Positions 3,686 to 30,566 of a DNA stretch of 64,000 nucleotides are shown piece after piece. Location of the stretch: positions 32,001-96,000 of the forward strand of contig CAVRGP010000002.1 in NCBI GenBank assembly GCA_963720755.1, in the 5' to 3' direction. Within the stretch, counting starts at the first letter, position 1. Every line of letters starts with the position of its first letter. The translations under genes were made by a program, and so were the position numbers. Below the pieces are notes generated by a model, which searched no databases, was not told where the DNA came from, and was given only the letters and a program-made list of their open reading frames with translations. Source of the DNA: an uncultured Chloroflexia bacterium. Lineage in GTDB: Bacteria > Chloroflexota > Limnocylindria > Limnocylindrales > CSP1-4.

Positions 3686-3739
3686 TAGTCATTTCGTACT
3701 GGGGGGCGCCGAGCGCGACCCGGTGCTACCCTGCACCGG
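3686..3739 (+). promoter_or_regulatory. Putative activator site TAGTCATTTCGTACT plus extended -10 (TGC-TACCCT) enclosed in a CCGGTGC/GCACCGG inverted repeat
   Basis: Same architecture recurs at 8050-8102; GTG start 15 nt after the first base of the -10. Confidence 0.6.
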
Positions 3740-3741
3740 CC

Positions 3742-5373
3742 GTGCGAATCCCTCTGCTCCTGTACGGGCTTGCGTTCGCCGTTCGCGCCGGGTTGATGCT
3801 CCTGTTCCCCGACCCGGCCTACCCGGATTCGTTCTACTACGTCGACGTGGCGCGGGCGCTCGGCGAGCGGACACGGGCTGAACGTCGACTTCGTCTGGAT
3901 CTTCGCGGAGGTCGGCGGCAAGTTGCCCGCCGATGCGGTCCTGCCCATCCCGTCGAACGCGCACTGGCTCCCCCTGGCGTCGTTCATCCAGGCGCCGTTC
4001 ATCGTGCTCATGGGCGCGACGGCGATCGCATCCGCGCTGCCGATGGTGCTCATCGGCTCACTGGCCGCGCCGCTGACCTGGCTGATCGCCCGTGACATGG
4101 GCGCTTCCCGGACCGTGCAGCTGGGTGCCGCGGTCCTCGCCGCCATCCCCGCAGCGGGGACGGTGTTCATGCCGCAGCCAGAGAACTTCGCGATCTTCCA
4201 GCCGCTGGTGGCGGCGACCCTGTGGTTCGCGGCTCGTGGGCTGCGGGGCGACACGAAGTCATACGCGGCGGCGGGGCTCCTCGTCGGGCTCGCCTCGATC
4301 GCACGCAACGACGCCTTCCTGCTGGGCGCGGCCGTCGGCCTCGTCTTCGTCATCGATCGGGTCCGAGCCTGGCGGCGCGGCGATCGTCCGCACATCTCGG
4401 TCCTCGCGGCGGCCGCCTGCATCGGGCTCTACCTGCTCATCGTCGTCCCGTGGTGGTACCGGCAGTACACCGTCTTCGGGTCGATCTCGCCGACGGCATC
4501 GACCGGTACCGCGCTGTGGCTGACGGAGTACCGGCAGTGGAACAGCATCACCGCGGACGTGTCGCTCGCGAACTTCCTGGCCCAGGGACCCGCCGGCATC
4601 ATCGGCAGCCGGCTCGGTGGGCTCGTGTCGGCGCCGCGAACTTCGCGGTCGTCATCTGCTCGGTCGTGCTCGTCCCATTCGTCGTGTGGGGCGGCTGGAT
4701 CCGCCGCCGCTCGGACGACTTGCTGCCCTGGTTCCTGTACGTCCTCATCATGTTCCTCGGCGCGACGCTGCTCTTCCCGTTGCACGTTCCGGGCGGCGCG
4801 TTCATCCATTCGGCCGTCGGGATGGGTCCGTATGCCTACATCCTGGCGCTGGAGGGTGTCGCGGCCCTGGTCGCGTGGATCGCGAAACGACGACCGAGCT
4901 GGGACGCATCGACCGCGACGCCGGTCTTCTCCTGGGCGGTCGTCGCCCTCGTGATCCTCACCGCGGCGCTGTACGCCCCGGTGGTCCAGGCCGGCTGGCG
5001 GGCGGCCGCGGCCCCACGGATCGAACTCGCCACGCAGCTGGACGAGATGGGCGTCCCGTCCACGGACCGGCTGATGTCCATCGATGCCGGCGGGTTCAAG
5101 TACTTCACAGGGCGGGGTGGTGTCGTCTCGCCGGACGACCCGATCGACACGATCCGAGAGGTCGCAGACGCCTACGACATCCGCTGGCTGGTCCTGGAGC
5201 GAAACGGCACGGTCGAGGCCCTCAAGCCCGTCCTCGATGGCGCGGCGCGGCCGGCCTGGATCGGGCCGCCGTCCTTCACGGTCGCAGCGGCTGACGATGG
5301 ACCACCGACGCTGGGGCTCTATCCTGTGTGCTTCGACGTATCCGACACCCGCTGCGGGGAGGCAGGGTCATGA
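3742..5373 (+). CDS. Glycosyltransferase family 39 / ArnT-like membrane protein (two apparent frameshifts near 3865 and 4630)
   Basis: N-terminal 'PDPAYPDSFYYVDVARAL', 'HWLPL', 'GLASIARND'; multi-TM; C-terminal soluble 'DPIDTIREVADAYDIRWLVLE'. Confidence 0.7.
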
Positions 5374-6997
5374 GTCGACGCGAAGCTTGGTTGACGGCAG
5401 GCGCGATCTTCGTCGTCGCGTTCCTCGTGCGGCTGGTGTTCGCGTCGCAGATCGTCTTCCCGAAGCCGGAAGACACCGCCTACTACGTCGGGGTGGCGCA
5501 GAACCTGGTCGAGGGGCGGGGCCTCGTCACGGACGCCATCTGGAGCTTCCAGACGCCGCCGCTCGAGTTCCCACGGGCGGCGTTCGAGATCTGGCTACCC
5601 CTCCCGACGTTCCTCGCCGCGGTCCCCATGCTGTTGTTCGGAGCGACCTTTGCGGCCGCCCAATGGTCGTCGGTCCTGGCGGGCGCGATCGTGCCCGTCC
5701 TCGCCTGGCGCCTGGCCGCCGACATGGCCGCGGAGTACGAGGTCCCGCATCGCCCGAGCCCGGGTCCTCGCGATCGGGAGTGGCCTGACCGCCGCGGTCT
5801 ACCTGCCCCTCCTGCTCCACTCGGCCCTGCCCGATTCGACGATGCCGTTCACGGTCCTCGCCCTCTCGGCGTGCCTGCTGATGGCCCGTTTCGTCGCGCA
5901 TCCCCGGGATGTCCGGCTTCGCGACCCGCGCGTGATCGCGGTCGGCCTGCTGATCGGCCTGGCGGCCCTGACCCGCAACGAGGCGATCTACATCGGTCTC
6001 GCCTGGGCGATCGTGGTCTGGCGGATGGGCGGCGTGGCTCGAGGGCGACGGGTGGCCATCATCGTCGAGGTCGCCGTCATCGCCGGACTCATCTTCCTGC
6101 CCTGGGCGGTTCGCGACTGGCTGGTCTTCGGCAGTCCGTTGCCCGGTCAGGCAGTCGCCAACGCCCTGGCCGTGAACGGATACAGATGTCTTCGCCTGGA
6201 ATGATCCGCCGACGCTGGCCCGATACCTCGCCGTCGGCCCGATCGGCCTGGTCGGCATGCGCATCGGCGGCATCGTCCACAACCTGTTCAACGTCCTGCT
6301 CCTGCCCGGGCTGCCGATCTCGGTCATCGGACTCGTCGGCCTGTACTGGACCATTCGAAGCCAGGCACTCCGGCCCGTCGTCATCGTCAGCTTCACCGCA
6401 TTCATCGTCACCAGCCTCGTCTTCCCGGTCACCACGACCTGGGGGACCTTCCTCCATGCATCCGGTCCGTTCCAGGTGCTGCTCGTGGTGTCGGCCCTGT
6501 TCCTTCTCGACGGCCTGATCGAGGAGGTGAGCATCCGGAGGAAGTGGACGAACCCGAACGCCTGGCTCGGTGCCGTGCTCGGGATCTTCGGGTCGCTCCT
6601 GTTCTCGATCGTGCTCCTTCCGTCGTTCGCGGCAGGCTCGCGCGACACGGCCCGGCTGTACGAGGTCCTCGGGGAACGCATGGCGGCCATCGGGCATCCG
6701 ATCGATCCGGCGGACGGCCCGATCATCTCGAACTACCCGATCTGGATGGCCGAGACGCAAGGCGTCTATGCGCTCGGCCTGCCCGACGAACCGCCGCGCG
6801 ACGTCGTCGACCTTGCGGATCACTTCGGATCGACCCTGCTCATCCTGGTCGACGCGAACAGCACCCATTGGCCCGCGGATCTCGAGGCTGGCGTGGACGG
6901 CTCCGGTTGCTTCCACGAGGTCGACCTGCAGCATCCAGACGCGTCACTGGAGGATCCGCTCGCGGATACCAAGGTCTTCGAGATCGCCTGCCCGTGA
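5370..6997 (+). CDS. Second GT39/ArnT-like membrane glycosyltransferase, paralog of the upstream gene (frameshifts near 5745 and 6185)
   Basis: ATGA overlap with the upstream stop. Motifs 'PKPEDTAYYVGVAQNL', 'IWLPLP' and 'GLAALTRNE' parallel the upstream gene. Confidence 0.7.
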
Positions 6998-8052
6998 CCC
7001 GCGTCTGCATCGTCATCCTCGGTATGCACCGATCGGGTACGAGCGCGCTGGCGGGCACGCTCGGCTTGCTCGGCGCGACGATGCCGGAGCACCAGATCGC
7101 CGCGAACCCGACCAATCCGACCGGACACTGGGAGCCGGAGCGGCTGGTCCGGATCAATGACCGGCTACTCGAGGAGGCGGGCAGCGGTTGGCAGGACTGG
7201 CGCCGCTTCGACCCGGGCGCCGTGCCGCCGGAACGGATGCGTGCGTACCGCGACGAGATCGCCGCCTGCCTGGAGGACGAGTACCCGCAGTCGACGCTGT
7301 TCGTCGTGAAGGACCCGAGGATCTCGCGGATGGTCCCGCTCTATTCCGACATCCTCGGATCGATGGGCGTGGATCCGAAGTACATCCTGTGCGTCCGGAA
7401 CCCGACCGACGTGACGGCATCGCTGGTCCGTCGCAGTGGCATCTCGGCAGGGTCATCGGCGCTTCTCTGGCTGAGGCATGTCCTCGACGCCGAGCGCATG
7501 ACTCGCGGCAAGACCCGCACGTTCGTGTCCTATGAGGCACTCCTCGACGATTGGCGACACGTCGTGCTCAGGATGTCCGGGTCACTTGATCTCGAATGGC
7601 CACGCTCCATCGATGACGCCGCGCCGGATGTCGAACCCTTCCTCCAGGGAGATCTTCGGCACCATGCCCGGACAACGGGCGGAATGGGCGGCGGCGAGCA
7701 GATCGAGCGATGGGTGGGCGAGGTCTACGCTGCTCTCCTTTCCCTGATCGGGGATCCGGGCGATGGCGAGGCCATGGCCACGCTCGATCGCGTCAGCGCT
7801 GCGTTCGAACCGGCCGGCGAGACCTTCGGGTCGGCGACGTTTCCTGACCTCGTCGAACGTGATCGGCAGCTCGCCGCGATGGCCAAGCAGCTTCGCGTCG
7901 AGACGAGGCGCAGGGAGAGGACCGAGAAGCGGCTCGACGCCGTCCTGGCCAGCCGGTCGTGGCGTCTCACTCGACCACTTCGCGGCCGCAACCCACGTGA
8001 CCCGAAGGACGGTACGTCGCCGGATCACCATCCCGAAGCCACGCCCGAATAG
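6994..8052 (+). CDS. Sulfotransferase-family protein with C-terminal coiled coil
   Basis: GTG start overlapping the upstream stop. 'ILGMHRSGTS' PAPS-binding loop, 'VKDPR', 'VRNP..V..S'; tail 'SRSWRLTRPLR'. Confidence 0.8.
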   Translation: MTRVCIVILGMHRSGTSALAGTLGLLGATMPEHQIAANPTNPTGHWEPERLVRINDRLLEEAGSGWQDWRRFDPGAVPPERMRAYRDEIAACLEDEYPQSTLFVVKDPRISRMVPLYSDILGSMGVDPKYILCVRNPTDVTASLVRRSGISAGSSALLWLRHVLDAERMTRGKTRTFVSYEALLDDWRHVVLRMSGSLDLEWPRSIDDAAPDVEPFLQGDLRHHARTTGGMGGGEQIERWVGEVYAALLSLIGDPGDGEAMATLDRVSAAFEPAGETFGSATFPDLVERDRQLAAMAKQLRVETRRRERTEKRLDAVLASRSWRLTRPLRGRNPRDPKDGTSPDHHPEATPE

Positions 8053-8102
8053 GTCTTTCGTACCAGTCGGCGGAACCGGTGCCCGGTGCTACGCTGCACC
8101 GG
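8050..8102 (+). promoter_or_regulatory. Putative activator site TAGGTCTTTCGTACC plus extended -10 (TGC-TACGCT) within a CCGGTGC/GCACCGG inverted repeat
   Basis: Near-copy of the 3686-3739 promoter, upstream of the two-component genes. Confidence 0.6.
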
Positions 8103-8160
8103 CTGTGAGATACCCCATCGTCCTGAGCACGCTTGGCCCCGCCCGCACGGGCGTGGGCTC

Positions 8161-8904
8161 GTGACGACCGCCTCGTATACTCGGACACCGATGGAGCACG
8201 CACGCGTCGCCACCGAACCCACGGACGACCCACCCGATATCGGGCTGCGCCTTGTCGAGGCCCAGGAGACGGAGCGAGCGCGCCTTGCCCAGGAGGTCCA
8301 CGATGGACCGGCCCAGGCGCTCAGCAACGCCATCTTCCAGGTTGAGCTCATCGAGAAGCTGATCGACTCCGACCTCCCCCTCGCCCGCTCCGAGCTGCAC
8401 TACCTGCGCGAGCTGCTCCGGCGCGAGTTGGACGGCGTCCGTTCGTTCATCAGCCAGCTCCGGCCCCCGATCCTCGACGAGTTGGGCCTGAATGGCGCGA
8501 TCACCGATGCCGTTTCACGCCTGCGGACCCTGACCGGATTGGACATCGCCACCAACCTGGCCGCCCCGACGGACGGCCTGACCGACGCCCAGCGGACGGT
8601 CGCCCTGCGCGTCGCCCAGGAGTCCCTCCAGAACGTCCGAAAGCACGCCGCGGCCACGCATGTCACGGTCACCACGGCGCTGCGCGACGATGGTTGGACG
8701 CTGGAAGTCGGCGACGATGGGCGGGGTTTCGATCCGGGTGACATGGCGGCCCGCGGTCGGCGAAACTTCGGATTGCAATTCATGCGTGAACGCGCCGACC
8801 TGACCGGCGCACGATTCGACGTACGATCGCATCCGGATGGCGGCACCGTCGTCCGGCTGGTGATCCCGATCGGGGCCACCACGGGAGGAGAGGAGCGCTC
8901 ATGA
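8161..8904 (+). CDS. Cytoplasmic HisKA_3 (DegS/NarX-type) histidine kinase without a sensor domain
   Basis: H-box 'ERARLAQEVHDGPAQ', N-box 'QESLQNVRKH', G1 'DDGRGF', G2 'FGLQFMRER', 'GGTVV'. Start is GTG 8161 or ATG 8191. Confidence 0.9.
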   Translation: MTTASYTRTPMEHARVATEPTDDPPDIGLRLVEAQETERARLAQEVHDGPAQALSNAIFQVELIEKLIDSDLPLARSELHYLRELLRRELDGVRSFISQLRPPILDELGLNGAITDAVSRLRTLTGLDIATNLAAPTDGLTDAQRTVALRVAQESLQNVRKHAAATHVTVTTALRDDGWTLEVGDDGRGFDPGDMAARGRRNFGLQFMRERADLTGARFDVRSHPDGGTVVRLVIPIGATTGGEERS

Positions 8905-9647
8905 GTGCCACGGACTACAGCGGGCCTGATCGCCGACGCGGCGGTCCGGAGAAGCGCGCCGCCAACGAGATCACCAGGATCCTGGTGGTGGACGACCACG
9001 CCCTCTTCCGGATGGGGATCGCCAACATCCTGGGCCACGAGGCGGACTTCGACATCGTGGCCGAAGCCGAAGATTCGCGAAGCGCCATCGACCGCGCGCT
9101 GGAGACCTCGCCGGACATCATCCTCATGGACCTGTCGCTGCCCGCTCCGGGTGGCATCGAGACGACCCAGCGGATCAAGCGCGAGTTGCCATCCACCGGG
9201 ATCATCGTCCTGGCCCAGACCGAGGACGAGGACGCCCTGTTCGATGCGATCAAGGCCGGCGCCGCAGCGTTCATCCTGAAGGACGTCGGCCCGGACGATC
9301 TCGTCACCATCATCCGGCGGGTCGTCGCCGGCGAGTACCTCATCAACGACAAGGTCTTCTCCAAGCCGGCCGTCGCCTCGCGGGTCCTCAAGGAGTTCCG
9401 CGAGCTCGCCGTCTACGGTCAGGACGCTGCGCCGATCTTCGCGCCGCTGTCCCCGCGCGAGGTGGAGATCCTGGACAACATCGCCCAGGGCATGACCAAC
9501 AAGCAGGTCGCCTACGCGCTGTCCATCAGCGAACAGACGGTCAAGAACCACATGAGCTCCATCCTGCGCAAGCTGTCCGTGAACGACCGGACCCAGGCCG
9601 TGGTCTATGCCATGCGCCAGGGCTGGATCCGGATGCCGGAGGACTGA
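8901..9647 (+). CDS. NarL/DegU-family response regulator (REC + LuxR HTH)
   Basis: 'VVDDH', 'ILMDLSLP', 'FILKD', HTH 'LSPREVEIL...GMTNKQVAYALSISEQTVKNHMSSILRKL'. Confidence 0.95.
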   Translation: MSATDYSGPDRRRGGPEKRAANEITRILVVDDHALFRMGIANILGHEADFDIVAEAEDSRSAIDRALETSPDIILMDLSLPAPGGIETTQRIKRELPSTGIIVLAQTEDEDALFDAIKAGAAAFILKDVGPDDLVTIIRRVVAGEYLINDKVFSKPAVASRVLKEFRELAVYGQDAAPIFAPLSPREVEILDNIAQGMTNKQVAYALSISEQTVKNHMSSILRKLSVNDRTQAVVYAMRQGWIRMPED

Positions 9648-9658
9648 TCCCCAGCGAC

Positions 9659-10960
9659 ATGACCGAGTCAGCACCCTCCGAGGCGCCGCCAGCGAACCTG
9701 CCTGAACTCTCCGGGCGGATGGCGGACGACCTCGCGAGCCTGGATAAGGAGCTCGCCGAGATCGACCTCCTGATCACCCAGGCGAAGACCGAGGCCGACC
9801 GGCACGAGACCAGGCGGGTGGCAGGCGCGGAGAAGATCGACGCGGCCCACAAGACCGCCGAGTCCGCCGGAACCGCCATGGACCCGGCCCTGGCCGCAGA
9901 CCTGAACGCCCAGCTCGTCCTGCTGACGAAGCGTGCGGCGCTCATGGAGACCCAGGTCGAAGTACTGGAAGGCAAGCGAAAAGTCCTCGGCCGCTACCGC
10001 GACAGTATGGCCGCCTACCTCGGAATACTGGCAGCGATAGGCGACGTGCCTGTGTCATCCGACGCCGCCCGATCCAGCCAGTCCGGAACCGCGATCCCGA
10101 TCGGGACCGTTGCCGCGACGGCCGCGAGGAAGGCCGCCGGGGCAGGCGTCGATCCGGCCGTCTCGCGGCTGCTCCTGGACGCGCAGGAGGACCTGCGCCG
10201 TGAGATCGCCCGGACGATGCACGACGGCCCGGCCCAGAGCCTGACCAACATCGTCCTCCAGGCCCAGATCGTCGAGCGGCTCGTGGCAAGCGACCCGACG
10301 AGCGCGGAGCCGGAAGTTCGTGAACTGATCGCGATGGTCCAGCGCAGCCTGGAAGCCACCAAGTCGTTCATCTTCGACGTTCGGCCGATGGTCCTCGACG
10401 ACCTCGGCCTCGTGCCGACCTTGCGGCGGGCCACCCGCGAGCGCGCCAAGCGCGCCGGTATCCCCATCGACTTCGATTCCATGGGGACGGACCGTCGCCT
10501 GCCGATGGACCTCGAGACCGGGTTGTTCCGGATCCTGGACGAGGCGATGGAGGCCTACGTCGCGGGCCAGGCCACGTGGGTCACCGTCCGGCTCGACTGG
10601 GCCGAACAATTCGAGGCGCACGTCACGGCCTACAGAGAGATGGCCCAGGCGGAACCGGCTGCCACGCCCGAGACGGCGCCCGACGCCGACCTCCCGCCGG
10701 CGCTGGCGGCGATGATGGAGGATCGACGAGCGGACGCACGAGATGCCGTGGAAGCCGCGAAGCGGGATTCGGTCGTGGCCCTGCCTCCGTCCACCTGGCG
10801 CGAGATCGAGGGCCGGGCGACGACGCTCGGGCTGGTGGCGGAATTGCTCAAGGACGGCGCCGAGGTGCGGATCGTCGGCGACCTTGCGGCCGACACGCCC
10901 GATGCGATCGCCGCCGCGGAGGCGGCCGCGGTGGAGGCGGCCGCCACGGACGCATCCTGA
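9659..10960 (+). CDS. HisKA_3 kinase-like protein with N-terminal coiled coil and degenerate ATPase domain
   Basis: H-box 'RREIARTMHDGPAQSLTN' intact; N-box replaced by 'DEAMEAYVAG'; no DxGxG or G2 box. Confidence 0.8.
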   Translation: MTESAPSEAPPANLPELSGRMADDLASLDKELAEIDLLITQAKTEADRHETRRVAGAEKIDAAHKTAESAGTAMDPALAADLNAQLVLLTKRAALMETQVEVLEGKRKVLGRYRDSMAAYLGILAAIGDVPVSSDAARSSQSGTAIPIGTVAATAARKAAGAGVDPAVSRLLLDAQEDLRREIARTMHDGPAQSLTNIVLQAQIVERLVASDPTSAEPEVRELIAMVQRSLEATKSFIFDVRPMVLDDLGLVPTLRRATRERAKRAGIPIDFDSMGTDRRLPMDLETGLFRILDEAMEAYVAGQATWVTVRLDWAEQFEAHVTAYREMAQAEPAATPETAPDADLPPALAAMMEDRRADARDAVEAAKRDSVVALPPSTWREIEGRATTLGLVAELLKDGAEVRIVGDLAADTPDAIAAAEAAAVEAAATDAS

Positions 10961-11121
10961 TGCGACGACTGACGTCGCGCGGTCAGGGCGTCGTTGAATA
11001 CGGTTTGATCCTGGCCCTGACCAGCATCTTCACGGTGCTCATCCTGGGGGTCTTCGGCGGGACGCTGGCCGATTTCCTGAGTCTCGTCGGTAGCGCGATC
11101 GACGCCGCGACCGGCGGCTGA
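10960..11121 (+). CDS. flp: Flp family type IVb pilin (divergent)
   Basis: MRRLTSRG|QGVVEYGLILAL..., Flp motif G-x4-EY; ATG overlaps the upstream stop. Confidence 0.8.
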   Translation: MRRLTSRGQGVVEYGLILALTSIFTVLILGVFGGTLADFLSLVGSAIDAATGG

Positions 11122-11147
11122 CCGCCGAGAGTCCGGGCACCACCCCC

Positions 11148-11192
11148 GGTACCATCATCCTAGTGTCTATTTGCGGGATCAGTCCCTATATT
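11148..11192 (+). promoter_or_regulatory. Putative flp promoter: inverted motif GGTACCATCATCCTA and -10 TATATT
   Basis: Motif-to--10 offset is 39 bp, as in the other locus promoters. Confidence 0.45.
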
Positions 11193-11246
11193 CGAGACAT
11201 GCCCTCGATCTTCCGGGGGGATCGTCATCATCTGGGAGGCTGCCAC

Positions 11247-11417
11247 ATGGCACTCATCACCACGCTCCTCGCCTCGCTTCGCAGCGACGAGGAAGGCCAG
11301 GGACTGGCCGAGTACGCGCTGATCCTCGCCCTCATCGCGATCGTCGCGATCATCGCCCTCATCTTCCTGGGCGGCCAGGTCAGCACGATCCTGAACACGG
11401 TCGGCAACTCCGTCTAG
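11247..11417 (+). CDS. flp: Flp pilin
   Basis: GGAGG RBS; MALITTLLASLRSDEEG|QGLAEYALILALIAIVAIIAL... Confidence 0.95.
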   Translation: MALITTLLASLRSDEEGQGLAEYALILALIAIVAIIALIFLGGQVSTILNTVGNSV

Positions 11418-11435
11418 GACCCGATCGCGTCGCAC

Positions 11436-11476
11436 GAACCGCCGACCCCACGGGGCTCGGCGGTTCTTCATTTCTT
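11436..11476 (+). terminator. Intrinsic terminator
   Basis: GAACCGCCGA...TCGGCGGTTC stem followed by TTCATTTCTT. Confidence 0.75.
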
Positions 11477-11486
11477 GGTGCGGTTA

Positions 11487-11532
11487 TAGGGCATCTGGGT
11501 CTCTTGACACGCCGCTTGACCGCCCGTACCGT
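11487..11532 (+). promoter_or_regulatory. Sigma70-type promoter TTGACA-N17-TACCGT with a partial upstream motif
   Basis: TTGACA 11504-11509, TACCGT 11527-11532, TAGGGCATCTGGGTC at 11487. Confidence 0.65.
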
Positions 11533-11584
11533 TTCCCAGCCCGCAGCGATCCTGCGGAGATCTCACGGAAAGGAGGGAACCAAC

Positions 11585-11755
11585 ATGACACAGCTCATCG
11601 CACTCATCTCGTCCATCCGCAACGACGACGAAGGCCAGGGTCTGGCCGAGTACGCGCTGATCCTCGCCCTCATCGCGATCGTCGCGATCATCGCGCTCAT
11701 CTTCCTGGGCGGCCAGGTCAGCACGATCCTCAACACGGTCGGCAGCTCCGTCTAG
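11585..11755 (+). CDS. flp: Flp pilin, near-identical mature part to 11247..11417
   Basis: AAGGAGG RBS; ...DEG|QGLAEYALILALIAIVAIIALIFLGGQVSTILNTVGSSV. Confidence 0.95.
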   Translation: MTQLIALISSIRNDDEGQGLAEYALILALIAIVAIIALIFLGGQVSTILNTVGSSV

Positions 11756-11779
11756 GACGGTCCACTCCATGGCAGATCG

Positions 11780-11812
11780 GAGCCGCCGGCGCCGTAAGGC
11801 CCGGCGGCTTCA
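11780..11812 (+). terminator. Stem-loop terminator
   Basis: GAGCCGCCGG...CCGGCGGCTT inverted repeat just after the flp stop. Confidence 0.55.
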
Positions 11813-11843
11813 ACGTTCCGGTGGTGCATGGACGCCGACGGAA

Positions 11844-11886
11844 CCTACCAACGGCCTATTGACACTCGCGCAGCCGACCGTATGTT
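11844..11886 (+). promoter_or_regulatory. Promoter TTGACA-N16-TATGTT directly preceded by motif CCTACCAACGGCCTA
   Basis: TTGACA 11859-11864, TATGTT 11881-11886. Confidence 0.6.
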
Positions 11887-11918
11887 GGCGGTAAGTCTTC
11901 GAGAAAGGAGGTTCATGC

Positions 11919-12110
11919 ATGACCAGACTCGCGCCCGTCCTCGCGATCATCGACCGGCTTCGCCGGGATGACGAAGGCCAGGGCCTCGCCGAATACGCTC
12001 TTATCCTCGCTCTCATCGCGATCGTCGCTATCGTCGCCCTCCTCTTCATGGGTTCCCAGGTCAGCGACAAGCTGAACGTCATCGGTACCACGTTGCAATC
12101 CATCCAGTAG
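11919..12110 (+). CDS. flp: Flp pilin
   Basis: AAGGAGG RBS; ...DDEG|QGLAEYALILALIAIVAIVALLFMG... Confidence 0.95.
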   Translation: MTRLAPVLAIIDRLRRDDEGQGLAEYALILALIAIVAIVALLFMGSQVSDKLNVIGTTLQSIQ

Positions 12111-12123
12111 GACTTCGATCTTC

Positions 12124-12154
12124 AAGGCCCGCCGAGCGATCGCTGGCGGGCCTT
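12124..12154 (+). terminator. Stem-loop after the last flp
   Basis: AAGGCCCGCC...GGCGGGCCTT perfect 10-bp stem. Confidence 0.6.
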
Positions 12155-12246
12155 CGCATGTCCGCGGGCCCTGACGGCACTCCCGCTGGCCCCCAGGAAC
12201 GCAACCTTGCAGATTTCCTTGCACCATGCGTGCGTTCCTGCTTTTT

Positions 12247-12304
12247 CCTACCAATAGTCCTAGCCCTTTGGTATAGTCGCGCGGCTCTGGGGCGGTGCTA
12301 GAGT
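12247..12304 (+). promoter_or_regulatory. cpaB operon promoter: tandem motif copies and extended -10 (CGGTGC-TAGAGT)
   Basis: CCTACCAATAGTCCTA and TAGCCCTTTGGTATA; the latter starts 38 bp before TAGAGT. Confidence 0.55.
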
Positions 12305-12345
12305 GGTGCCACCTGTCACACCAGCTTTGATCGGGGAGAATCAAC

Positions 12346-13239
12346 TTGAGACGCTCAAATCGCCTTGTCCTGCTCGTCGGGGTCTTCCTGGCGATCGTGG
12401 CCTTCGTCGGCATCATCCTGCTCAGTTCGAGCACCCCCAAGTCGAATGGTCCGGAGGCGGCTCCGACGACCGGTCCGGTCGTCGTCGCATCGGCGGATAT
12501 CCCGCTATCGACGCGCATCGCGGCCAACCAGATCACGACCAAGACCGTGGACCTGACGGCGATCCTGCCGGGTGCGTTCACCGATCCCTCCCAGGTGATC
12601 GGCCAGATCGCCCGCGAGCAAGTCACGGCCGGCGCGCAGATCACGAGCGAAACGCTCAGCGGCAACAACGGCCAGATCACAACGATCGACTGTCCGGCCA
12701 CCCTGCGCTGCATGTCTGTCCAGGTGGACCAGGTCAGCGGCGTGGGCACGGTCATCAAGACCGGTGACTACGTGGACATGGTCGTCGGCCTGACCGCTGA
12801 CAAGTTCCCGGTCATCACGATCAACCCGGTCGATAGCTCCGTGACGGTCGTCTCCGGCCTCAACAGCACCAGCGTCAAACTGCTGCTCCAGGGCATGCAG
12901 GTCATGGGCACGCTGCTGCCGACCCCGGCGCCGACAACCGACACCGGGACAGAAACACCGGCCCCGTCAGCGGGTGACACGACAGCCCTCAACGGCCAGC
13001 AGCAGATCGTCATCCTTGCGGTGACGGCTCAGCAGGCCGAGGTCCTGAAGTTCGCCCAGATGGACGGCAACGTCTCGCTGGCCCTGCGATCGTCAGCCGA
13101 CTTCATCGATCCGGTCACGGGCGAGCCCGTGCTGCCGGTCGACGCGGTGACGACTGGCGTGACGCTCAAGGTGTTGGTGGACTCCTACGGTGTCCTGCCA
13201 CCCGAAGTCGTCCAGACCGTCACGCCGAAGAAGCCGTAG
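12346..13239 (+). CDS. cpaB: Flp pilus assembly protein CpaB (SAF + RcpC)
   Basis: N-terminal TM, 'VVVASADIP', 'GVGTVIKTGDYVDMV', 'VSLALRS'; tad context. Confidence 0.92.
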   Translation: MRRSNRLVLLVGVFLAIVAFVGIILLSSSTPKSNGPEAAPTTGPVVVASADIPLSTRIAANQITTKTVDLTAILPGAFTDPSQVIGQIAREQVTAGAQITSETLSGNNGQITTIDCPATLRCMSVQVDQVSGVGTVIKTGDYVDMVVGLTADKFPVITINPVDSSVTVVSGLNSTSVKLLLQGMQVMGTLLPTPAPTTDTGTETPAPSAGDTTALNGQQQIVILAVTAQQAEVLKFAQMDGNVSLALRSSADFIDPVTGEPVLPVDAVTTGVTLKVLVDSYGVLPPEVVQTVTPKKP

Positions 13240-13316
13240 CGGAATCCTGATCGGGGACGCGCCTGGCGCGTCCCCGGCCACCGCATCCACCCACCGCAAG
13301 GACCGACCAGAGCGAG

Positions 13317-14576
13317 ATGACTGACCAGATCCGTGTCCTCGTCGTTGACGACATCGCCGAAACCCGCGATCACCTCACGAAGCTTCTTGGCTTCGAGAGC
13401 GACATCGAGGTTGTCGGCGCGGCTGGCTCCGGTCGTGAAGCGCTGGAGCTGGCCGGCCAGCTGAACCCGGATGTCGTCCTCATGGACATCAACATGCCGG
13501 GCATGGATGGCATCGCGACGACGGAGCAGCTCTCCTCGACTGTCCCGAACGCGTCCGTCGTGATGATGTCCGTCCAGGGTGAAGCGGACTACCTCCGCCG
13601 ATCCATGCTGGCCGGCGCCCGGGAGTTTCTCGTCAAGCCATTCAGCAGCGACGAACTGACCGCCTCCATCCGACAGGTGAGCGCGCGCGAGCGCGACAAG
13701 CAAAGCCGGCTCGCCGCCACACCGGCGACGATCGGCGGCGGGGGTGGCGACCGGACCGGTGGTGACGGCGAGCCCGGCACCGTCGTGGCCGTGTTCAGCC
13801 CCAAGGGCGGTGTCGGGCGAACGACCGTCGCGGTCAACCTGGCCGTCGCCGCCGCCACGGAGCTGGGCAAGAAGGTCGTCGTCATGGACGCCTCATTCCA
13901 GTTTGGCGATGTCGGTGTCCTGCTCAACCTGAACCCGAAGAGCAAGTCGATCGCAGACCTCATCCCGGAGCTGGAAGCGGGCGAGCTCGAATCGATGGAC
14001 ACGTTCCTGGTCGATCACTCGGCTGGGATCCGCGTCCTCCTCGCCCCGCCATCACCGGAGACCGCCGAGATCATCACGGCAGCCTGGGTCAAGCGGGTCA
14101 TCGAGGGCCTGCGGCGCGACCACGACCTGGTCGTCGTCGATTGCGCCGCATACTTCAATGACACGACGCTGGCGATCCTTGACGCCGCCGACATCATCCT
14201 GACGATGCTGAGTCTCGAGATCACGAGCATCAAGAACATGCGCCTCTTCCTGGAGGTAGCCCAACAGCTTGGCTATGAGAAGGGGAAGGTCCGGCTCGTC
14301 CTCAATCGCGCCGATTCGGCCCTCGGCATCCGGGTCAGCGACGTCGAGACCTCGATCGGACGCAAGGTCGATGAGCAGATCGTGAGCGACGGTCGGAGCG
14401 TGGTCTACGCGCTCAATCGTGGCGTCCCGTTCTTCCTGTCCAATCGGGAGGCCCAGGTCTCCCAGGACATCCTCCGACTCGCCCGGACCGTGACCGGGGA
14501 ACGAGCCGTGGTCGAGGCCGCGGACGAAAGTGCCAAGAAGTCCACTCAGAAGAAGTCGTTGTTCGCATGGCGATGA
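13317..14576 (+). CDS. cpaE: REC-domain / CpaE (TadZ) MinD-like ATPase
   Basis: Intact receiver (VVDD, LMDINMP, VKP) plus deviant Walker A 'SPKGGVGRTT' and 'QFGDV'. Confidence 0.9.
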   Translation: MTDQIRVLVVDDIAETRDHLTKLLGFESDIEVVGAAGSGREALELAGQLNPDVVLMDINMPGMDGIATTEQLSSTVPNASVVMMSVQGEADYLRRSMLAGAREFLVKPFSSDELTASIRQVSARERDKQSRLAATPATIGGGGGDRTGGDGEPGTVVAVFSPKGGVGRTTVAVNLAVAAATELGKKVVVMDASFQFGDVGVLLNLNPKSKSIADLIPELEAGELESMDTFLVDHSAGIRVLLAPPSPETAEIITAAWVKRVIEGLRRDHDLVVVDCAAYFNDTTLAILDAADIILTMLSLEITSIKNMRLFLEVAQQLGYEKGKVRLVLNRADSALGIRVSDVETSIGRKVDEQIVSDGRSVVYALNRGVPFFLSNREAQVSQDILRLARTVTGERAVVEAADESAKKSTQKKSLFAWR

Positions 14577-14617
14577 CCGCACGCACCTGGCCCGTCCGGG
14601 CGAGAAGGGGGTAAACG

Positions 14618-16039
14618 ATGTCCCTGTTGAAACGGATCGAAAGCGCTCGACCAGGTGCCGACGGCACCGCCGGCGCCGCACCGGGTAAGCCAGGCGCGCC
14701 TGGATCCAACGTTCCGGCACCGCCAGGCGGGGTCCCGGGCGCCCCGACGCCGAGTCGCCTGAGCAGTCAGGCGCCCGTCCGCGAGTCGTTCCGCGACGTC
14801 AAGTTCCGCATCCAGAACCGGGTCATCCAGGACCTGGATCCGAAGCTGGACCTGTCCAACCAGGTCGAGGTCCGACGCCAGATCGAGGAGATCTTCGGCA
14901 AGGTCATCGACGAGGAAGGCCTCGCCCTGACCCGCGCCGAGCGCGTCCGGATGCTCGAGCAGATCACGGACGAGATCATCGGTCTCGGCCCGCTCGAGCC
15001 ACTTCTTCGTGACGAGTCCATCACCGAAGTCATGGTCAACGGCCCGCGCCAGGTCTACATCGAGCGATCGGGCAAGCTTGAACTGACCAACGTGGTCTTC
15101 CAGAACGACGATCACGTCATGCGGATCATCGACCGGATCATCGCCCCCATCGGCCGTCGAGTCGACGAATCGAGCCCGATGGTCGACGCCCGTCTGACCG
15201 ACGGGTCTCGCGTCAACGCCATCATCCCGCCGCTCTCATTGGTCGGCCCCGTCGTCACCATCCGAAAGTTCTCGGCGTCGCCGTTCACCGTGGAGGACCT
15301 CGTCCGCTTCGGCACGGCTACCTCGGACATGTTCGACTTCCTCCGAGCGTGCGTGGAAGCGCGGCTCAACGTGTTCGTGTCCGGCGGCACCGGCTCGGGC
15401 AAGACCACGACCCTCAACGTCCTGTCGTCGTTCATCCCGAACGACGAGCGGATCGTGACGATCGAGGACGCGGCGGAGCTCCAGCTTCGGCAGGAGCACG
15501 TCGTCACCCTTGAGTCGCGCCCACCCAACATCGAGGGCAAGGGCGCCGTCCCCATCCGCGAGCTCGTCCGCAACGCCCTGCGCATGCGGCCCGACCGGAT
15601 CATCGTCGGGGAGTGTCGGTCCGGCGAGGCTTTGGACATGCTCCAGGCCATGAACACCGGCCACGACGGCTCCATGTCCACCGGCCACGCCAACAGCCCG
15701 CGCGACATGCTGTCGCGGCTCGAGACGATGGTCCTGATGGCCGGCGTGGACCTGCCCCTGCGGGCGATCCGCGAGCAGGTCGCGTCCGCCGTCGATCTCA
15801 TCGTCCAGCAGTCCCGGCTCAAGGACGGGACGCGCAAGATCGTCAACATCACCGAGGTCCAGGGCATGGAGGGTGATGTCATCGTCATGCAGGATGTCTT
15901 CATCTTCGAGCAGACCGGCGTCGTCGAGGGCAAGATCCAGGGCCGCCTCAAGGCGACCGGGATCCGGCCCAAGTTCGTCGAGAAGTTCGAGGTCATGGGG
16001 ATCAACCTGCCACCCGGCCTGTTCGGCTTCACCTACTAG
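14618..16039 (+). CDS. cpaF: Tad secretion ATPase CpaF/TadA
   Basis: 'GGTGSGKTT', 'TIEDAAEL', 'LRMRPDRIIVGE', 'AMNTGHDGS'. Confidence 0.97.
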   Translation: MSLLKRIESARPGADGTAGAAPGKPGAPGSNVPAPPGGVPGAPTPSRLSSQAPVRESFRDVKFRIQNRVIQDLDPKLDLSNQVEVRRQIEEIFGKVIDEEGLALTRAERVRMLEQITDEIIGLGPLEPLLRDESITEVMVNGPRQVYIERSGKLELTNVVFQNDDHVMRIIDRIIAPIGRRVDESSPMVDARLTDGSRVNAIIPPLSLVGPVVTIRKFSASPFTVEDLVRFGTATSDMFDFLRACVEARLNVFVSGGTGSGKTTTLNVLSSFIPNDERIVTIEDAAELQLRQEHVVTLESRPPNIEGKGAVPIRELVRNALRMRPDRIIVGECRSGEALDMLQAMNTGHDGSMSTGHANSPRDMLSRLETMVLMAGVDLPLRAIREQVASAVDLIVQQSRLKDGTRKIVNITEVQGMEGDVIVMQDVFIFEQTGVVEGKIQGRLKATGIRPKFVEKFEVMGINLPPGLFGFTY

Positions 16040-16062
16040 GCTCGGGAAGGAGTACTGAACCC

Positions 16063-17071
16063 GTGGATACCATGACGCTCGCGGTCGCCGCCGTCGCCGC
16101 CCTGGCGATCATCGTGCTCGCGATCGGCGTTGCGACCTCGGGTGGGTCCGGCATCTCCGACCGGCTCGAGCGCTACGCGGCGAAGCCGGCCGCCAACAAG
16201 GCCGCCAGCGGTCAGGGTGGCGTCGCCGACCTGATCGCCCAGAGCGCCGCCCTCAACAGCCTCAACCGGGTCGTCGAGCAACGCGACTTCGGGGCCAACC
16301 TGGCCCGCGACATCGCCCGGGCGGACCTGCAGCTCAAGCCGTCGGAGTTCCTGGCCATCTGGGCCGGCTCGGTCGTCGGCGTCCCGCTGGCCATGTTCCT
16401 CCTGTCGCCGATCCTGCCCGCGCTGGGCAACCCGATCTTCCTCCTCGTCGGACTGCTCATCGGGTTCATGCTCCCGAGGTTCTGGCTGGCGCGTCGAAAG
16501 AGCGGCCGCCTCGGCGCCTTCAACAAGCAGCTGCCGGATACGATCACCCTGCTGGCCAACGCCCTGCGCGCCGGCTCGTCCTTCCTCCAGGCGGTGGAGC
16601 TGGTGGTCCGCGAATCGCGCCCACCGGTCTCGACCGAGTTCGGCCGCGTCATCCGTGAGGTCAACCTTGGTCTGCCGTTCGAACAGGCCCTGGAGAACAT
16701 GGTCCGCCGGGTCCGCTCGGACGACCTCGAACTGATGGCCACCGCCATCAGCATCCAGCACCAGGTGGGCGGCAACCTCGCCGAGATCCTCGACTCGATC
16801 GCGTACACGATCCGTGAACGCGTCCGGATCAAGGGCGAGATCCGAACGCTGACCGCCCAGCAGCGCATGTCCGGTTACGTCGTGGCGGGTCTCCCGATCG
16901 GGCTGGCCGGCCTTCCTGTTCGTGGCGGCGCCCGGGTTCATGGATCCGATGTTCGCCAATCCGCCGGCCATCCTCGGGCTGCCGGCCGGGGTCATCATCC
17001 TGATGATCGGCGGTTTCATGATGTTCCTCGGGTTCCTGGCCATCCGCAAAATCGTCGACATCGAGGTCTAG
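16063..17071 (+). CDS. tadB: TadB (type II secretion F-family), +1 frameshift near 16911
   Basis: 'QLPDTITLLANALRAG', 'VGGNLAEIL'. The shifted frame gives the canonical end 'FLAIRKIVDIEV*' (TAG 17069-17071). Confidence 0.9.
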
Positions 17072-17076
17072 GACTG

Positions 17077-18009
17077 ATGGAAATCTTGCCGATCGTCGTC
17101 GCCGCCCTCGCGGCCGGCGGCATCCTGCTCATCGTCATCGGCTTGTCCGGCGGCCAGTCCGTTGACCCGGTCCAGGCCCGGCTGACCCAGCTTGGGTCCA
17201 TGCAGGCCAAGAACCTCGAGGAACTCGAGCTCCAGCAGCCGTTCATCGAGCGGACCCTGCGGCCCCTCGCCAAGCGCCTGTCCGGTAGCGTGTCCCGGGT
17301 CACGAGCACTTCGTTCAGCGAGCGGACCGAGAAGCGCCTCGCGTTGGCAGGTAACCCTGGCGACATGCGGGTGGCCGACTGGCTCGGGATCAAGGCCGTC
17401 GGCGCGATCATCGGGGCGATCATCTTCTTCGCCCTGTTCGTGCTCCTCGGCGTCATGAGCCTGCCGTTCTTCATCGGGCTGGTGATGACCGCCGTCGGCG
17501 GCTTCTTCGGCTACACCTACCCCGAGTTCTGGCTGGGGGGAAAGATCAAGAAGCGCCAGAAGGCGATCCTCCTGATGATCCCGGACGCACTCGACCTGCT
17601 GACCATCTCCGTGCGGGCCGGTCTCGGGTTCGACGCGGCGCTGGGCAAGGTCGTCGAAAAGCTGGAAGGCCCCCTGTCGGACGAGTTCCGGCGGGCAATG
17701 GCAGAACTCCGAGTCGGCAAGGCGCGACGCGATGCCCTGCGTGACATCGTCGCCCGGACGGAAGTCCCGCCGCTGACCAACTTCATCGGCGCGATCATCC
17801 AGGCCGAGCAACTCGGCGTGTCGATCTCCAAGGTCCTCCAGGTCCAGTCGGAGCAGCTCCGGATCGAACGCCGCCAGCGTGCCGAGGAACAGGCCGCGAA
17901 GGCCCCGATCAAGATGCTGTTCCCGCTCGTCGGCTGCATCTTCCCGTCGCTGTTCATCGTCATCCTTGGCCCGGCGATCATCCTGATCGTCCAGAACCTG
18001 GCCGTCTGA
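17077..18009 (+). CDS. tadC: TadC (type II secretion F-family)
   Basis: 'PDALDLLTISVRAGLGFD', 'RAEEQAAKAPIKMLFPL'. Confidence 0.93.
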   Translation: MEILPIVVAALAAGGILLIVIGLSGGQSVDPVQARLTQLGSMQAKNLEELELQQPFIERTLRPLAKRLSGSVSRVTSTSFSERTEKRLALAGNPGDMRVADWLGIKAVGAIIGAIIFFALFVLLGVMSLPFFIGLVMTAVGGFFGYTYPEFWLGGKIKKRQKAILLMIPDALDLLTISVRAGLGFDAALGKVVEKLEGPLSDEFRRAMAELRVGKARRDALRDIVARTEVPPLTNFIGAIIQAEQLGVSISKVLQVQSEQLRIERRQRAEEQAAKAPIKMLFPLVGCIFPSLFIVILGPAIILIVQNLAV

Positions 18010-18027
18010 CCCGGATCACCGCGGATC

Positions 18028-18480: not shown

Positions 18481-18601
18481 CCAGCCGAGCCGAGCCTGAT
18501 GCCGCCTACGCGCATACAGGGCGCGGTGTCCAGAATTGCCGCCAAATCAAGCATCAACGGCCGCCCGCATGGCATGCTGCAGGCACACCACGGGAGGACG
18601 C

Positions 18602-18997: not shown

Positions 18998-19044
18998 CGC
19001 CCGGATAAGCGCCGGGTGAGACCCGACTGTCATCGTGGGCCGCG

Positions 19045-19734: not shown

Positions 19735-19786
19735 CCGGGTGTCGAGGAGCCCGGGCGTATAATCGACCCAGACGCAGGAGGGCCTG

Positions 19787-20362
19787 GTGCGGACGATCGT
19801 CAAGGGAAAGAACGCTGAGATCCCGGACCGTGTGCGCGACTATGCGGAGCGCAAAGCGCAGCGGATCGAGCGGCTGCTGGACGATCAGACCGATGCGACC
19901 TTCGAGCTCTGGAACGAGCACCACCGCAGCGCCGACGCCTCCCATTTCGCCGAGCTGACCCTCGTCATCCAGGGCAAGCCGCTGCGCAGCCGGGCAGCCG
20001 GCTCGTCGTACCAGGCCGCCCTCGACGGCGTCGTGGACAAGGTCGAGCGCCAAGCCGTCGACCACAAGGAGAAACCTCGCCTCCGGGCGCGCCCCGAGGA
20101 GGAGAAGGAGATCCTCCGACGACTGGCCGACGGGAGCGAAGGTCCGGCCAGAGAGACGCGCATCGTCAAGGTCAAGCGCTTCGCCATCGAGCCGATGTTC
20201 GAGGAAGACGCGGTCGCGCGGATGGAGGAGCTGGGCCACACGTTCTTCGTCTTCGTCAGCGCGGAGACCGAGCGGATCGCCGTCCTCTACCGACGCCAGG
20301 ACGGGGACTACGGCGTCATCGAGCCGATGATCGGCGGCGACTACACGAAGGGCCGACGCTAG
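19787..20362 (+). CDS. hpf: Long-type ribosome hibernation promoting factor
   Basis: S30AE N-domain plus C-domain 'EDAVARMEELGHTFFVF...VLYRRQDGDYG'; TATAAT and GGAGG upstream. Confidence 0.92.
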   Translation: MRTIVKGKNAEIPDRVRDYAERKAQRIERLLDDQTDATFELWNEHHRSADASHFAELTLVIQGKPLRSRAAGSSYQAALDGVVDKVERQAVDHKEKPRLRARPEEEKEILRRLADGSEGPARETRIVKVKRFAIEPMFEEDAVARMEELGHTFFVFVSAETERIAVLYRRQDGDYGVIEPMIGGDYTKGRR

Positions 20363-20385
20363 GCCCCGACCCCGCGCGTCGTACG

Positions 20386-22025: not shown

Positions 22026-22118
22026 CGAGTCGGCCTGGGCGGCCGCGGCGCGGCGGCGGGCGGCGGCGGGCGCGGCCGACGGCGGGCGGCCGCGGCGGGC
22101 GGCGGCGGGCCGTGGAAC

Positions 22119-22276
22119 TTGCCAAATATGCGTCCCACGCTTACTAAGCACGGATAGCAGCGTCCGGGCGGTTGATCGTGGCCGGATCGGAGCTGCGCTG
22201 AGCGTGGAGGCCGAGGATCTAGCTGATCTCGGGGTGGATGGGATGGCTTTGTACGCGGCTGGCTCGTATTTGGCAA
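22119..22276. repeat. About 160-bp element bounded by inverted repeats (TTGCCAAATA / TATTTGGCAA)
   Basis: AT-rich 10-bp perfect IR inside a very GC-rich gap between convergent genes. Confidence 0.5.
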
Positions 22277-22439
22277 ATGTGCCGCGGCGGCCCACGGACC
22301 CCCGCGGCACGCCACGCTCCCCGGCCCCCGCCGCCACGCTCCCCGCGGGAATCGCGAACGCCGGCGCCCCAGACACCGGCGTTCGCTGCCCCGAAGACTC
22401 TGTCCGTGGAGGACGGACCGAGTCAAGCCAGATGGATGC

Positions 22440-22967
22440 TCAGTAGCGCCCCGGCTCTCGATTAGCCGAGCGGGAGACGGCGCGCACCATGCTGACGGTG
22501 GCCCCGGCACCCACCCCGACCGGCGTACCGGACGTGGAGGCGGAAGATCGTCCGAGCGTCCGTTCCGGAGACCGTTCGGTCCCGGAACTCGCGTCGGCGG
22601 ATGGGAAGTTCCTGGCGTAGCGGCGCATCCGCACCGCGAGGTAGTACTCCATGATCTGGCGAACCTGCGGTTCGCTCAGCAGCTCGTCGGCACGCAGGGC
22701 GTACTCGACGCGGGCGGTCGGGTTGGTGTTCCCGGCGGCGACGAGACCGAGGTATTGCGGCGTATCCGCATCGTCACGAAGCTCGCGCAGGCCGCGGGCC
22801 AGCTTGGTGGCAGTCCCGAGCGACGGCATCCGATCCCCGCGGATCAACCGCGAGATCGTGGAGTGGTCGACTCCGGACTGCTGGGCGAGTTGGCGCTGCG
22901 ACATCTTCTTGGCCTTGAGCTGGGCTCGCAGCCATTCGTTGAACGCTCGGCCGTTCTGCGTGGTCAT
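22440..22967 (-). CDS. XRE-family HTH transcriptional regulator
   Basis: 'MSQRQLAQQSGVDHSTISRLIRGDRMPSL'. Confidence 0.9.
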   Translation of the reverse strand: MTTQNGRAFNEWLRAQLKAKKMSQRQLAQQSGVDHSTISRLIRGDRMPSLGTATKLARGLRELRDDADTPQYLGLVAAGNTNPTARVEYALRADELLSEPQVRQIMEYYLAVRMRRYARNFPSADASSGTERSPERTLGRSSASTSGTPVGVGAGATVSMVRAVSRSANREPGRY

Positions 22968-23175
22968 GGGTGGGATTGGGCTCCGCTGTGATCCACCATT
23001 CGGATGGGCTGTTCTCTAGGCCCACTATCGAGCGGCGACGGTGCGGTCTATATCACCCGTTCGTACCGGTCGGTCCAGGGAGCGTGGCGGTCTCGCAGAT
23101 CGGTTCGGTGGGGTTCGTGTCGGTGCGGTCTGGACCGTCGGCCTTGGGACCCCGGACTATCAGGGTAGGCTTCTG

Positions 23176-28266: not shown

Positions 28267-30566
<2,300 letters not shown>

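Follow-up and report, generated by a model that had tools for sequence, protein, structure and literature searches.

A short sequence element recurs before the putative promoters of one locus in a 64,000-nucleotide stretch of an uncultured Chloroflexota genome (order Limnocylindrales; contig CAVRGP010000002.1, positions 32,001 to 96,000; hereafter the window), in which genes for GT-C membrane glycosyltransferases, a two-component system and a Tad pilus stand together. The element (consensus TAGsCCwTTsGTAyc, extending to about 21 bp with the GTCGG that follows) is real and marks a conserved set of predicted promoters: At six promoters of the locus, and in both orientations, it lies 37-41 nt before a -10-like hexamer. 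We consider it about an even call that the element is the binding site of a cluster-specific activator, most likely the response regulator encoded at 8901-9647 of the same locus.

Seven copies had been listed in an initial annotation of the window, and when these were re-read their coordinates, letters and offsets to -10-like hexamers were all as given. Six of the seven are the following.

3686 (block 3686..3706), plus strand: TAGTCATTTCGTACT, before the GT-C operon; -10-like TACCCT at 3727, offset 41
8050, plus strand: TAGGTCTTTCGTACC (TAGGTCTTTCGTACCAGTCGG over 8050..8070), before the kinase gene; TACGCT at 8090, offset 40
11148-11162, plus strand: GGTACCATCATCCTA, inverted, before flp1; TATATT at 11187, offset 39
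11844-11858, plus strand: CCTACCAACGGCCTA, inverted, before the last flp gene; TATGTT at 11881, offset 37
12261, plus strand: TAGCCCTTTGGTATA (TAGCCCTTTGGTATAGTCGCG over 12261-12281), before cpaB; TAGAGT at 12299, offset 38
23053-23067: TCACCCGTTCGTACC, inverted relative to xre, which is on the minus strand; GATAGT at plus-strand positions 23024-23029, offset 38

The copy at 3686 is without the GGTCGG tail of the family consensus. The element had been described as a 15-bp pseudo-palindrome, a term that suits it weakly: In position-frequency tables, complementary pairs are limited to the outer TA...TA and to positions 4 and 10 (i.e., TA..s.....s..TA).

If these copies were chance resemblances, the element would be no more frequent in the window than in shuffled sequence. 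The core pattern TAGNNNTTNSGTA has three matches in the window against 0.01 expected, and none of 100 shuffles reached three. A tighter version, TAGNNNTTTSGTA, has three matches in the entire 3.0-Mb genome, all at the three strong window copies (3686, 8050 and 12261), and a looser one leads to a fourth strong copy, at position 18312 of contig C9, before a paralogous GT-C operon. When a matrix is built from these four, they score 18.9-21.9 bits, compared with 14.5 for the next best of about 6 million positions; when each was left out in turn, their ranks were 11 (3686), 3 (8050), 4 (C9) and 89 (12261). To avoid circularity, a second matrix was rebuilt from relatives only, and this matrix gives 25.6 for 12261, 20.3 for 8050, 18.0 for 3686 and 17.5 for C9, placing the three strong copies of the window first, second and joint third in the genome and the C9 copy fifth. 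Among the top five positions, only those four have a TAnnnT at 36-42 nt. The remaining one (TGACCCTTTCGTACA, window 29780-29794, minus strand, or C2:61794; score 18.0) has no -10 at the right distance and looks coding-like by eye.

The other copies are unconvincing by score alone. With the four-copy matrix, the inverted copy at 11844 reaches 13.4 (rank 18 genome-wide), that at 23053 reaches 11.7, the inverted copy at 11148 reaches 9.6 and the copy at 11487 only 1.5; comparison with relatives rescues the first three as candidate sites, in that they are conserved. Because a simple 13-mer is no commoner per genome than its reversed control, the enrichment of the motif lies in its identity and position and not in its number. 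A scan of positions 1-26000 against Rfam (E up to 1) returned 0 matches to an RNA element.

The initial annotation had looked to relatives for support, and this was obtained in the form of a fixed position. All of the genomes compared are metagenome bins, and they share kinship, such that the counts below are not independent trials. Some loci of the genus were picked for a motif match near the kinase and others by kinase similarity alone, and loci of other genera were picked from the regulator matches listed, in genera with few or no pattern matches; loci taken by kinase or regulator similarity alone gave the same result as those picked by motif. The gene order GT-C, GT-C2, kinase, regulator, HisKA_3 protein, flp0, several flp, cpaB, cpaE, cpaF, tadB/C is present in all 28 loci of the genus and also in 16 loci from six other genera. 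When 120 nt upstream of the GT-C start were scanned, the best matrix match fell at -53 to -56 in 83 of 90 distinct loci, and the seven misses include probable matches to the second GT-C gene and one locus from which the site was lost. Before cpaB, the best match lies at -75 to -86 in 62 of 66 loci; the four misses all belong to one genus (g3), in which the site has a different right half. The proteins encoded nearby are only 45-75% identical in the family, yet the position of the motif is fixed.

The upstream profile of GT-C (67 loci, class B) looks like a footprint: Nothing is conserved before the element, conservation sets in abruptly at position 1 and information is high over positions 1-21 (TaGcCcaTTCGTACCGGTCgG), after which come about 10 free positions and a -10 block, CCCGGTGCTAcGCTGCACCGGCCGTG. 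A two-part pattern that combines these features (TAGSCCWTTSGTAY-N16-24-TGCTANNNT, i.e., the motif, 16-24 nt and TGCTAnnnT) occurs in 115 of 301 genomes of the order, and its reversed control in 0 of 301. Matches are spread over 20 of 39 genera and comprise 114 of the 258 genomes of family f1 and none of the 42 of family f2, whose genomes are about 1.1 Mb. (The 301 include two unpublished genomes, G300 and G316, neither of which matches.)

The predicted promoters of the locus are as follows.

3720..3744, plus strand: GT-C promoter, CCGGTGC-TACCCT-GCACCGG, an extended -10 TACCCT (3727-3732) within a 7-bp inverted repeat
8083..8164, plus strand: CCGGTGC-TACGCT-GCACCGG (-10 at 8090-8095), then the remnant of a GT-C start
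11148..11192, plus strand: flp1 promoter, inverted GGTACCATCATCCTA, no -35 consensus, -10 TATATT at 11187-11192
11504-11509 and 11527-11532, plus strand: flp2 promoter, TTGACA, N17 and TACCGT
11844..11886, plus strand: promoter of the last flp gene, inverted CCTACCAACGGCCTA abutting a -35 TTGACA (11859-11864), -10 TATGTT at 11881-11886
12216..12325, plus strand: cpaB promoter region, TTTCCT repeat, motif TAGCCCTTTGGTATAGTCGCG at 12261-12281, -10 GGTGCTAGAGT at 12294-12304, and GGTGCCACCTGTCACA
23067-23053, minus strand: xre upstream region, GGTACGAACGGGTGA as read on the xre strand, GATAGT 38 nt on

From the set that the initial annotation proposed to share the motif at a constant distance from the -10 and next to the place of the -35, the GT-C, flp1, last flp, cpaB and xre promoters stand. 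At flp1, the block GGTACsAwy-N3-CyAGTG, followed after 19-21 nt by TATAnT, was visible in all 12 relatives first inspected. A loose regular expression for it matched 52 of 103 distinct loci, and a stricter one matched 41 of 107 but none of the 107 when applied to the opposite strand; of the 41, 35 are placed at -100 to -91 from the pilin start. At the last flp gene, the CTA half stands against TTGACr in 9 of the 13 loci shown, and the other half is loose. The element before xre, GGTACsAACGGGTGATAyAG, is present in 25 of 25 orthologous loci at 94-115 nt before the start; GATAGT stands at the 38-nt offset in 15 of these and CATCAT in the other 10.

The seventh copy, reported as a partial match before flp2 (11487..11501, plus strand), proved to be noise, with its score of 1.5 and no motif in relatives: We reject it because the relatives show only TTGACA-N17-TAnnnT at flp2, and here too the promoter is a plain TTGACA-N17-TACCGT. 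The flp2 pilin may be expressed independently of the switch that would govern its neighbours.

Since the promoters with a forward site have no -35 consensus, an activator site is the best reading of the element. Its start, 37-41 nt from the -10, brings its end up to the expected beginning of a -35, and consensus positions 16-21 (GGTCGG or GTCGC) would sit in the -35 place, with no TTGACA-like hexamer present. The locus supplies its own contrast, in that flp2 has a TTGACA and no motif, whereas GT-C, cpaB and flp1 have the motif and nothing resembling TTGACA. The -10 elements were assigned from sequence only; if transcription begins 7 nt after the -10, the motif would cover roughly -52 to -32, and RNA polymerase at an extended -10 (GGTGCTAnnnT) lacking a -35 would be recruited by the bound protein, as is done by class II activators of the LuxR type. 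We thus infer activation and not repression: Binding by the regulator encoded at 8901-9647 would switch on two pilins (flp1 and the last flp), the Tad machine, the GT-C glycosyltransferases and xre. No RNA run was among the sequencing runs listed for window positions 3500-13400; four soil DNA runs of one study hold 0.10-0.39 of the words sampled from this interval.

Genes at 3.7-23 kb of the window (G+C 68%) were identified with Pfam, which bore out the calls of the initial annotation (HisKA_3 kinases, a REC+GerE regulator, Flp pilins, CpaB/E/F, TadB/C, PMT_2 glycosyltransferases, a sulfotransferase and an XRE protein).

3742 to about 5373, plus strand: GT-C (PMT_2) glycosyltransferase, frameshifted (+1 near 3862), from Pfam and comparison with the C9 paralogue
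5328-6518, plus strand: second GT-C-like gene (GT-C2), from Pfam
6544-8052, plus strand: sulfotransferase, from Pfam; its stop codon is the TAG of the 8050 motif copy
8191 (predicted ATG) to 8904, plus strand: kinase, HisKA_3+HATPase_c, from Pfam
8901-9647, plus strand: NarL/LuxR-type response regulator (REC+GerE), from Pfam and PDB relatives
9659-10960, plus strand: second HisKA_3 protein, from Pfam
10960-12110, plus strand: four Flp-type pilin genes (flp0 10960-11121, flp1 11247-11417, flp2, and flp3, the last, 11919-12110)
12346-18009, plus strand: Tad machine, comprising cpaB, REC-CpaE/TadZ, cpaF and fused tadB/C, from Pfam
Downstream of the Tad machine: DUF192, DUF1622, a comF-like gene, hpf and another PMT_2 gene, from Pfam
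22440-22967, minus strand: XRE-family regulator gene xre, from Pfam (22440..23067 with its upstream region)

Several properties make the response regulator the leading candidate for the binding protein. Its domains are unambiguous (Response_reg, 2.5e-25; GerE, 1.3e-22; Pfam), its full-length PDB matches are VraR, NarL and DevR (E 5e-37 to 2e-31), and HisKA_3 partner kinases adjoin it on both sides (one ending at 8904, the second at 9659-10960), so that it has both the domain architecture and the type of partner kinase of NarL, DevR (DosR) and VraR. Proteins of this group often bind next to or over the -35. The left half of the element, TAGCCCT or TAGTCAT, resembles the NarL heptamer TACYYMT; relative to the NarL 7-2-7 site, the halves of this candidate operator are 3 bp closer and poorly symmetric. 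An orthologue of the regulator is present in 238 of 258 genomes of family f1 and 0 of 42 of family f2, with one per genome in nearly all, and is 80-98% identical among the matches listed. The kinases are less conserved (48-74% and 41-66% identity), and conservation of the regulator far beyond that of its kinases fits a protein with a conserved DNA target. All of the conserved sites lie within about 14 kb of its gene.

Such a regulator would also activate its own synthesis. In 2 of 4 loci inspected in relatives, the start of the kinase gene overlaps the stop of GT-C2, as does the start of the regulator gene that of the kinase; because of this tight packing, the motif-bearing GT-C promoter would drive the kinase and the regulator as well. 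In the present genome, the copy at 8050 would keep the positive loop.

The initial annotation took that copy for a regulon site of the kinase promoter, a view that the relatives do not bear out (0 of 29 and 0 of 43 loci): Beside the kinase, no motif scored above 10.6 in 29 loci and none scored at least 12 in 43 further loci. Behind the 8050 copy is a decayed GT-C gene start of 19 codons, from GTG at 8105 to TGA at 8162-8164 (judged by eye against the GT-C starts of relatives), and the promoter may be an ancestral GT-C promoter left after a rearrangement. The GT-C operon itself is duplicated, in that C9 18319-22587 matches window 3693-7964 at 92% identity over the whole of GT-C, GT-C2 and the sulfotransferase. 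The C9 operon has its own motif-bearing promoter and no kinase or regulator behind it. Since the genome is a metagenome bin (93.6% complete, 2.7% contamination), C9 could represent a strain variant rather than a true paralogue. The copies at 3686, 8050 and C9 are alike beyond the motif, sharing CCGGTGC-TAnnCT-GCACCGG, a GTG and GT-C-like codons to about 50 nt into the coding sequence; being homologous, they do not count as independent evidence, which comes from the cpaB, flp and xre copies.

The GTG start of GT-C, at 3742, is 9 nt past the -10, which would make the transcript nearly leaderless given the predicted transcription start. The CCGGTGC/GCACCGG repeat around the -10 (3720-3744 and 8083-8107) is near-invariant in the loci of 67 relatives, and may act as a second operator or reflect a constraint that leaderless translation imposes. 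The extended -10 GGTGCTAnnnT has 18 occurrences in the genome, which appear by eye to be mostly promoter-like.

Several observations weigh against the assignment of the motif to this regulator. A dimeric NarL-type protein would usually call for dyad or direct-repeat symmetry, of which the motif shows little. The synteny of xre equals that of the regulator gene, its product is 74-89% conserved and the motif stands upstream of it; this protein could be the binder instead. The co-occurrence of regulator and motif (both in f1, neither in f2) amounts to a single evolutionary event, for which the Tad locus and xre are confounding factors, and related genomes are non-independent samples. At cpaB, about 100 bp of the promoter are conserved, so the motif there is one block among several and does not stand out. 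Two genera keep the regulator and lack the strict two-part pattern: It is kept in 22 of 25 genomes of g3 and 25 of 26 of g5, and the pattern is found in 0 of 25 and 0 of 26. In g3 (loci L099-L102 and L112-L114), the right half of the cpaB site is lost in 7 of 7 loci and the GT-C site kept in 7 of 7; in g5, the cpaB motif is kept in 4 of 4 loci but the -10 is changed, and 1 of the 4 is without the GT-C site.

As to the form of these changes, the g3 cpaB site keeps GGTCCTAGCCC, and its right half sGTAyA has become TTGGGCGG or, in two loci, TTGGTGG. Besides the motif, the cpaB promoter of the window has a CCTTGC...GCA element, a direct repeat (TTTCCT-N5-TTTCCT) on the upstream side of the motif and GTGGTGCCACCTGTCACA immediately past the -10, and more than one factor probably acts there.

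The main rival, which we regard as unlikely, is that the motif is the operator of the XRE regulator (22440-22967), which would control its own promoter together with those of Tad, the pilins and GT-C, the response regulator acting elsewhere or indirectly. Autoregulation is common for XRE-type proteins, and xre is syntenic (39 of 41 genomes of the genus; its 37 best matches 74-89% identical) with an upstream element in every locus compared, which has GATAGT at the 38-nt offset in the majority. This very site is, however, the least typical of all, having TCA for TAG at positions 2-3 in 25 of 25 loci, and xre lies about 10 kb from the promoters it would regulate. Nor does the protein itself indicate a site, its only PDB match having E = 0.009 and no close relative having been solved. 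A BldD-like identity for the XRE protein was considered and dropped, there being no BldD entry in the PDB result and no match beyond a generic helix-turn-helix.

An unlinked transcription factor, for instance one that regulates surface structures globally, is a similarly improbable binder of the motif. In favour of such a factor, the motif in relatives also occurs outside the locus, before a TadE-like gene (L037) and before a gene for a proline/threonine-rich, membrane-anchored protein (L042). But in the present genome the well-placed, high-scoring sites are all in the locus or before the C9 paralogue, a confinement that fits a local and not a global regulator, and the recurrent matches elsewhere in relatives are at gene ends or inside genes. 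The homologues of such extra targets in this genome (TadE-like genes on C6 and a secreted protein on C8) have no motif upstream, by eye. Two matches that recur in the genus, TAGGACTTTCGTACG and TAGTACTTTSGTAC, were rejected as regulon members, since at the loci inspected they lie at a stop codon between convergent genes or inside frames with high G+C at third codon positions. An unproven candidate remains at C11:671276, where TAGTACCTTTCGT with one extra base, plus GGTGCTAGGCT, stands upstream of a small open reading frame of unknown function.

That the motif instead belongs to the core promoter and is read directly by RNA polymerase, as an upstream element or through an alternative sigma factor, we consider very unlikely. 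The fixed distance to the -10 and the lack of a -35 would suit such an element, and TGGTATAGT of the cpaB copy itself resembles an extended -10; yet the gap from the GTA core to the -10 (about 25-27 nt) is too long for a -35/-10 pair, the distance is the same in both orientations, unlike that of sigma-factor elements, TACCGG of the GT-C copy is not -10-like, and the last flp promoter has the motif plus a consensus TTGACA. A -35/-10 or alternative-sigma reading was set aside on spacing and on the occurrence of both orientations. Shared descent of duplicated promoter cassettes, with chance and without function, draws on the homology of the 3686, 8050 and C9 copies and on the duplication of the whole operon, but is highly improbable, since the cpaB, flp1 and xre copies are outside that duplication, the motif holds its position while the adjoining spacer varies freely and the neighbours diverge, and the pattern, position and profile results, including the empty reversed control, contradict it.

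The most favoured reading, in which the response regulator activates the pilus locus it resides in, has precedents. The initial annotation knew of no description of such a programme, but PprA-PprB of Pseudomonas aeruginosa is a known analogue: PprB, a NarL/LuxR-family regulator, is reported to control type IVb (Flp) pili, CupE fimbriae and the BapA adhesin directly (PMC3510237; preprint 10.1101/639112), to have a cognate kinase and to bind its own promoter (PMC3510237, PMC6821963). PprB and the candidate described here share family, kinase partner and a link to the Flp pilus. They differ in several respects: The PprB site GGCTAATAC, as given in PMC6821963, is unlike the present motif; PprB represses its own promoter in the same account, whereas activation is proposed here; its partners are CupE and BapA, where ours are GT-C glycosyltransferases and an XRE gene; and the phyla differ, PprB belonging to Pseudomonas and our candidate to an uncultured member of the Chloroflexota class Limnocylindria. 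In Caulobacter crescentus, a CtrA site at the -35 of pilA, which encodes a Tad pilin, activates the promoter (PMC11264516); CtrA is an OmpR-family, global cell-cycle regulator, whereas our candidate is of the NarL type and the sites found here do not extend beyond one locus. In Pectobacterium, a response regulator beside the flp/tad cluster is needed for flp/tad transcription; it is OmpR-type, and no operator was defined for it (PMC3767616).

Given PprB, the Pectobacterium regulator and CtrA, the principle is already known, including, from Pseudomonas, that of a two-component system inside a tad locus that switches tad on. What the present locus adds is a new lineage and a new motif, conserved family-wide, and also a coupling to GT-C glycosyltransferases and to an XRE gene. 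Among the results listed by literature searches on the pili of Limnocylindria and the flp/tad loci of Chloroflexi, no paper dealt with pilus regulation in this lineage. Limnocylindrales are known only from metagenome bins, here from soil, and we know of nothing published on gene regulation in the order. The motif, conserved across roughly half of the sampled family genomes, would belong to a candidate promoter architecture of the lineage, in which an activator site at about -42 precedes an extended -10 (GGTGCTAnnnT) and the genes are nearly leaderless.

A wider and much more tentative proposal, which we think unlikely to hold, is that one regulator and one operator would run a surface programme in this family of soil Limnocylindrales, in which Tad pili are made together with GT-C (PMT-like) enzymes that would glycosylate the Flp pilins or other surface proteins, the sulfotransferase also adding sulfate in the present genome. 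If so, Tad pili would be decorated with glycans in a regulated way, which to our knowledge has not been described for Tad pili of monoderm-type bacteria. The link between pilus production and GT-C glycosyltransferases suggests possible substrates of these enzymes. As for the sulfotransferase, which had been counted among the members of the regulon, it is present in the operon here and on C9, but these are the only full-length genes seen: The matches in relatives, none of them full-length, are mostly limited to the first 40-220 residues.

The Tad cluster contains Flp_Fap (below the Pfam cut-off, E 7e-6 to 8e-4), RcpC, AAA_31/ParA with REC, T2SSE and T2SSF domains. A Pfam scan of the open reading frames in 1-26000 returned no prepilin peptidase (CpaA/TadV) and no TadE/F, the peptidase not having been searched for specifically; three TadE-like genes are on contig C6 at 127-136 kb, apart from the Tad locus. 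The frame of the GT-C gene is broken after about 40 codons by one extra G at 3855-3870 (GCTCGGCGAGC, compared with GCTCGCGAGC in C9), and the gene may be a pseudogene or the product of an assembly error. The CpaE/TadZ homologue (13317-14576) has an N-terminal receiver domain, by virtue of which the pilus machine itself may take a phosphorylation signal.

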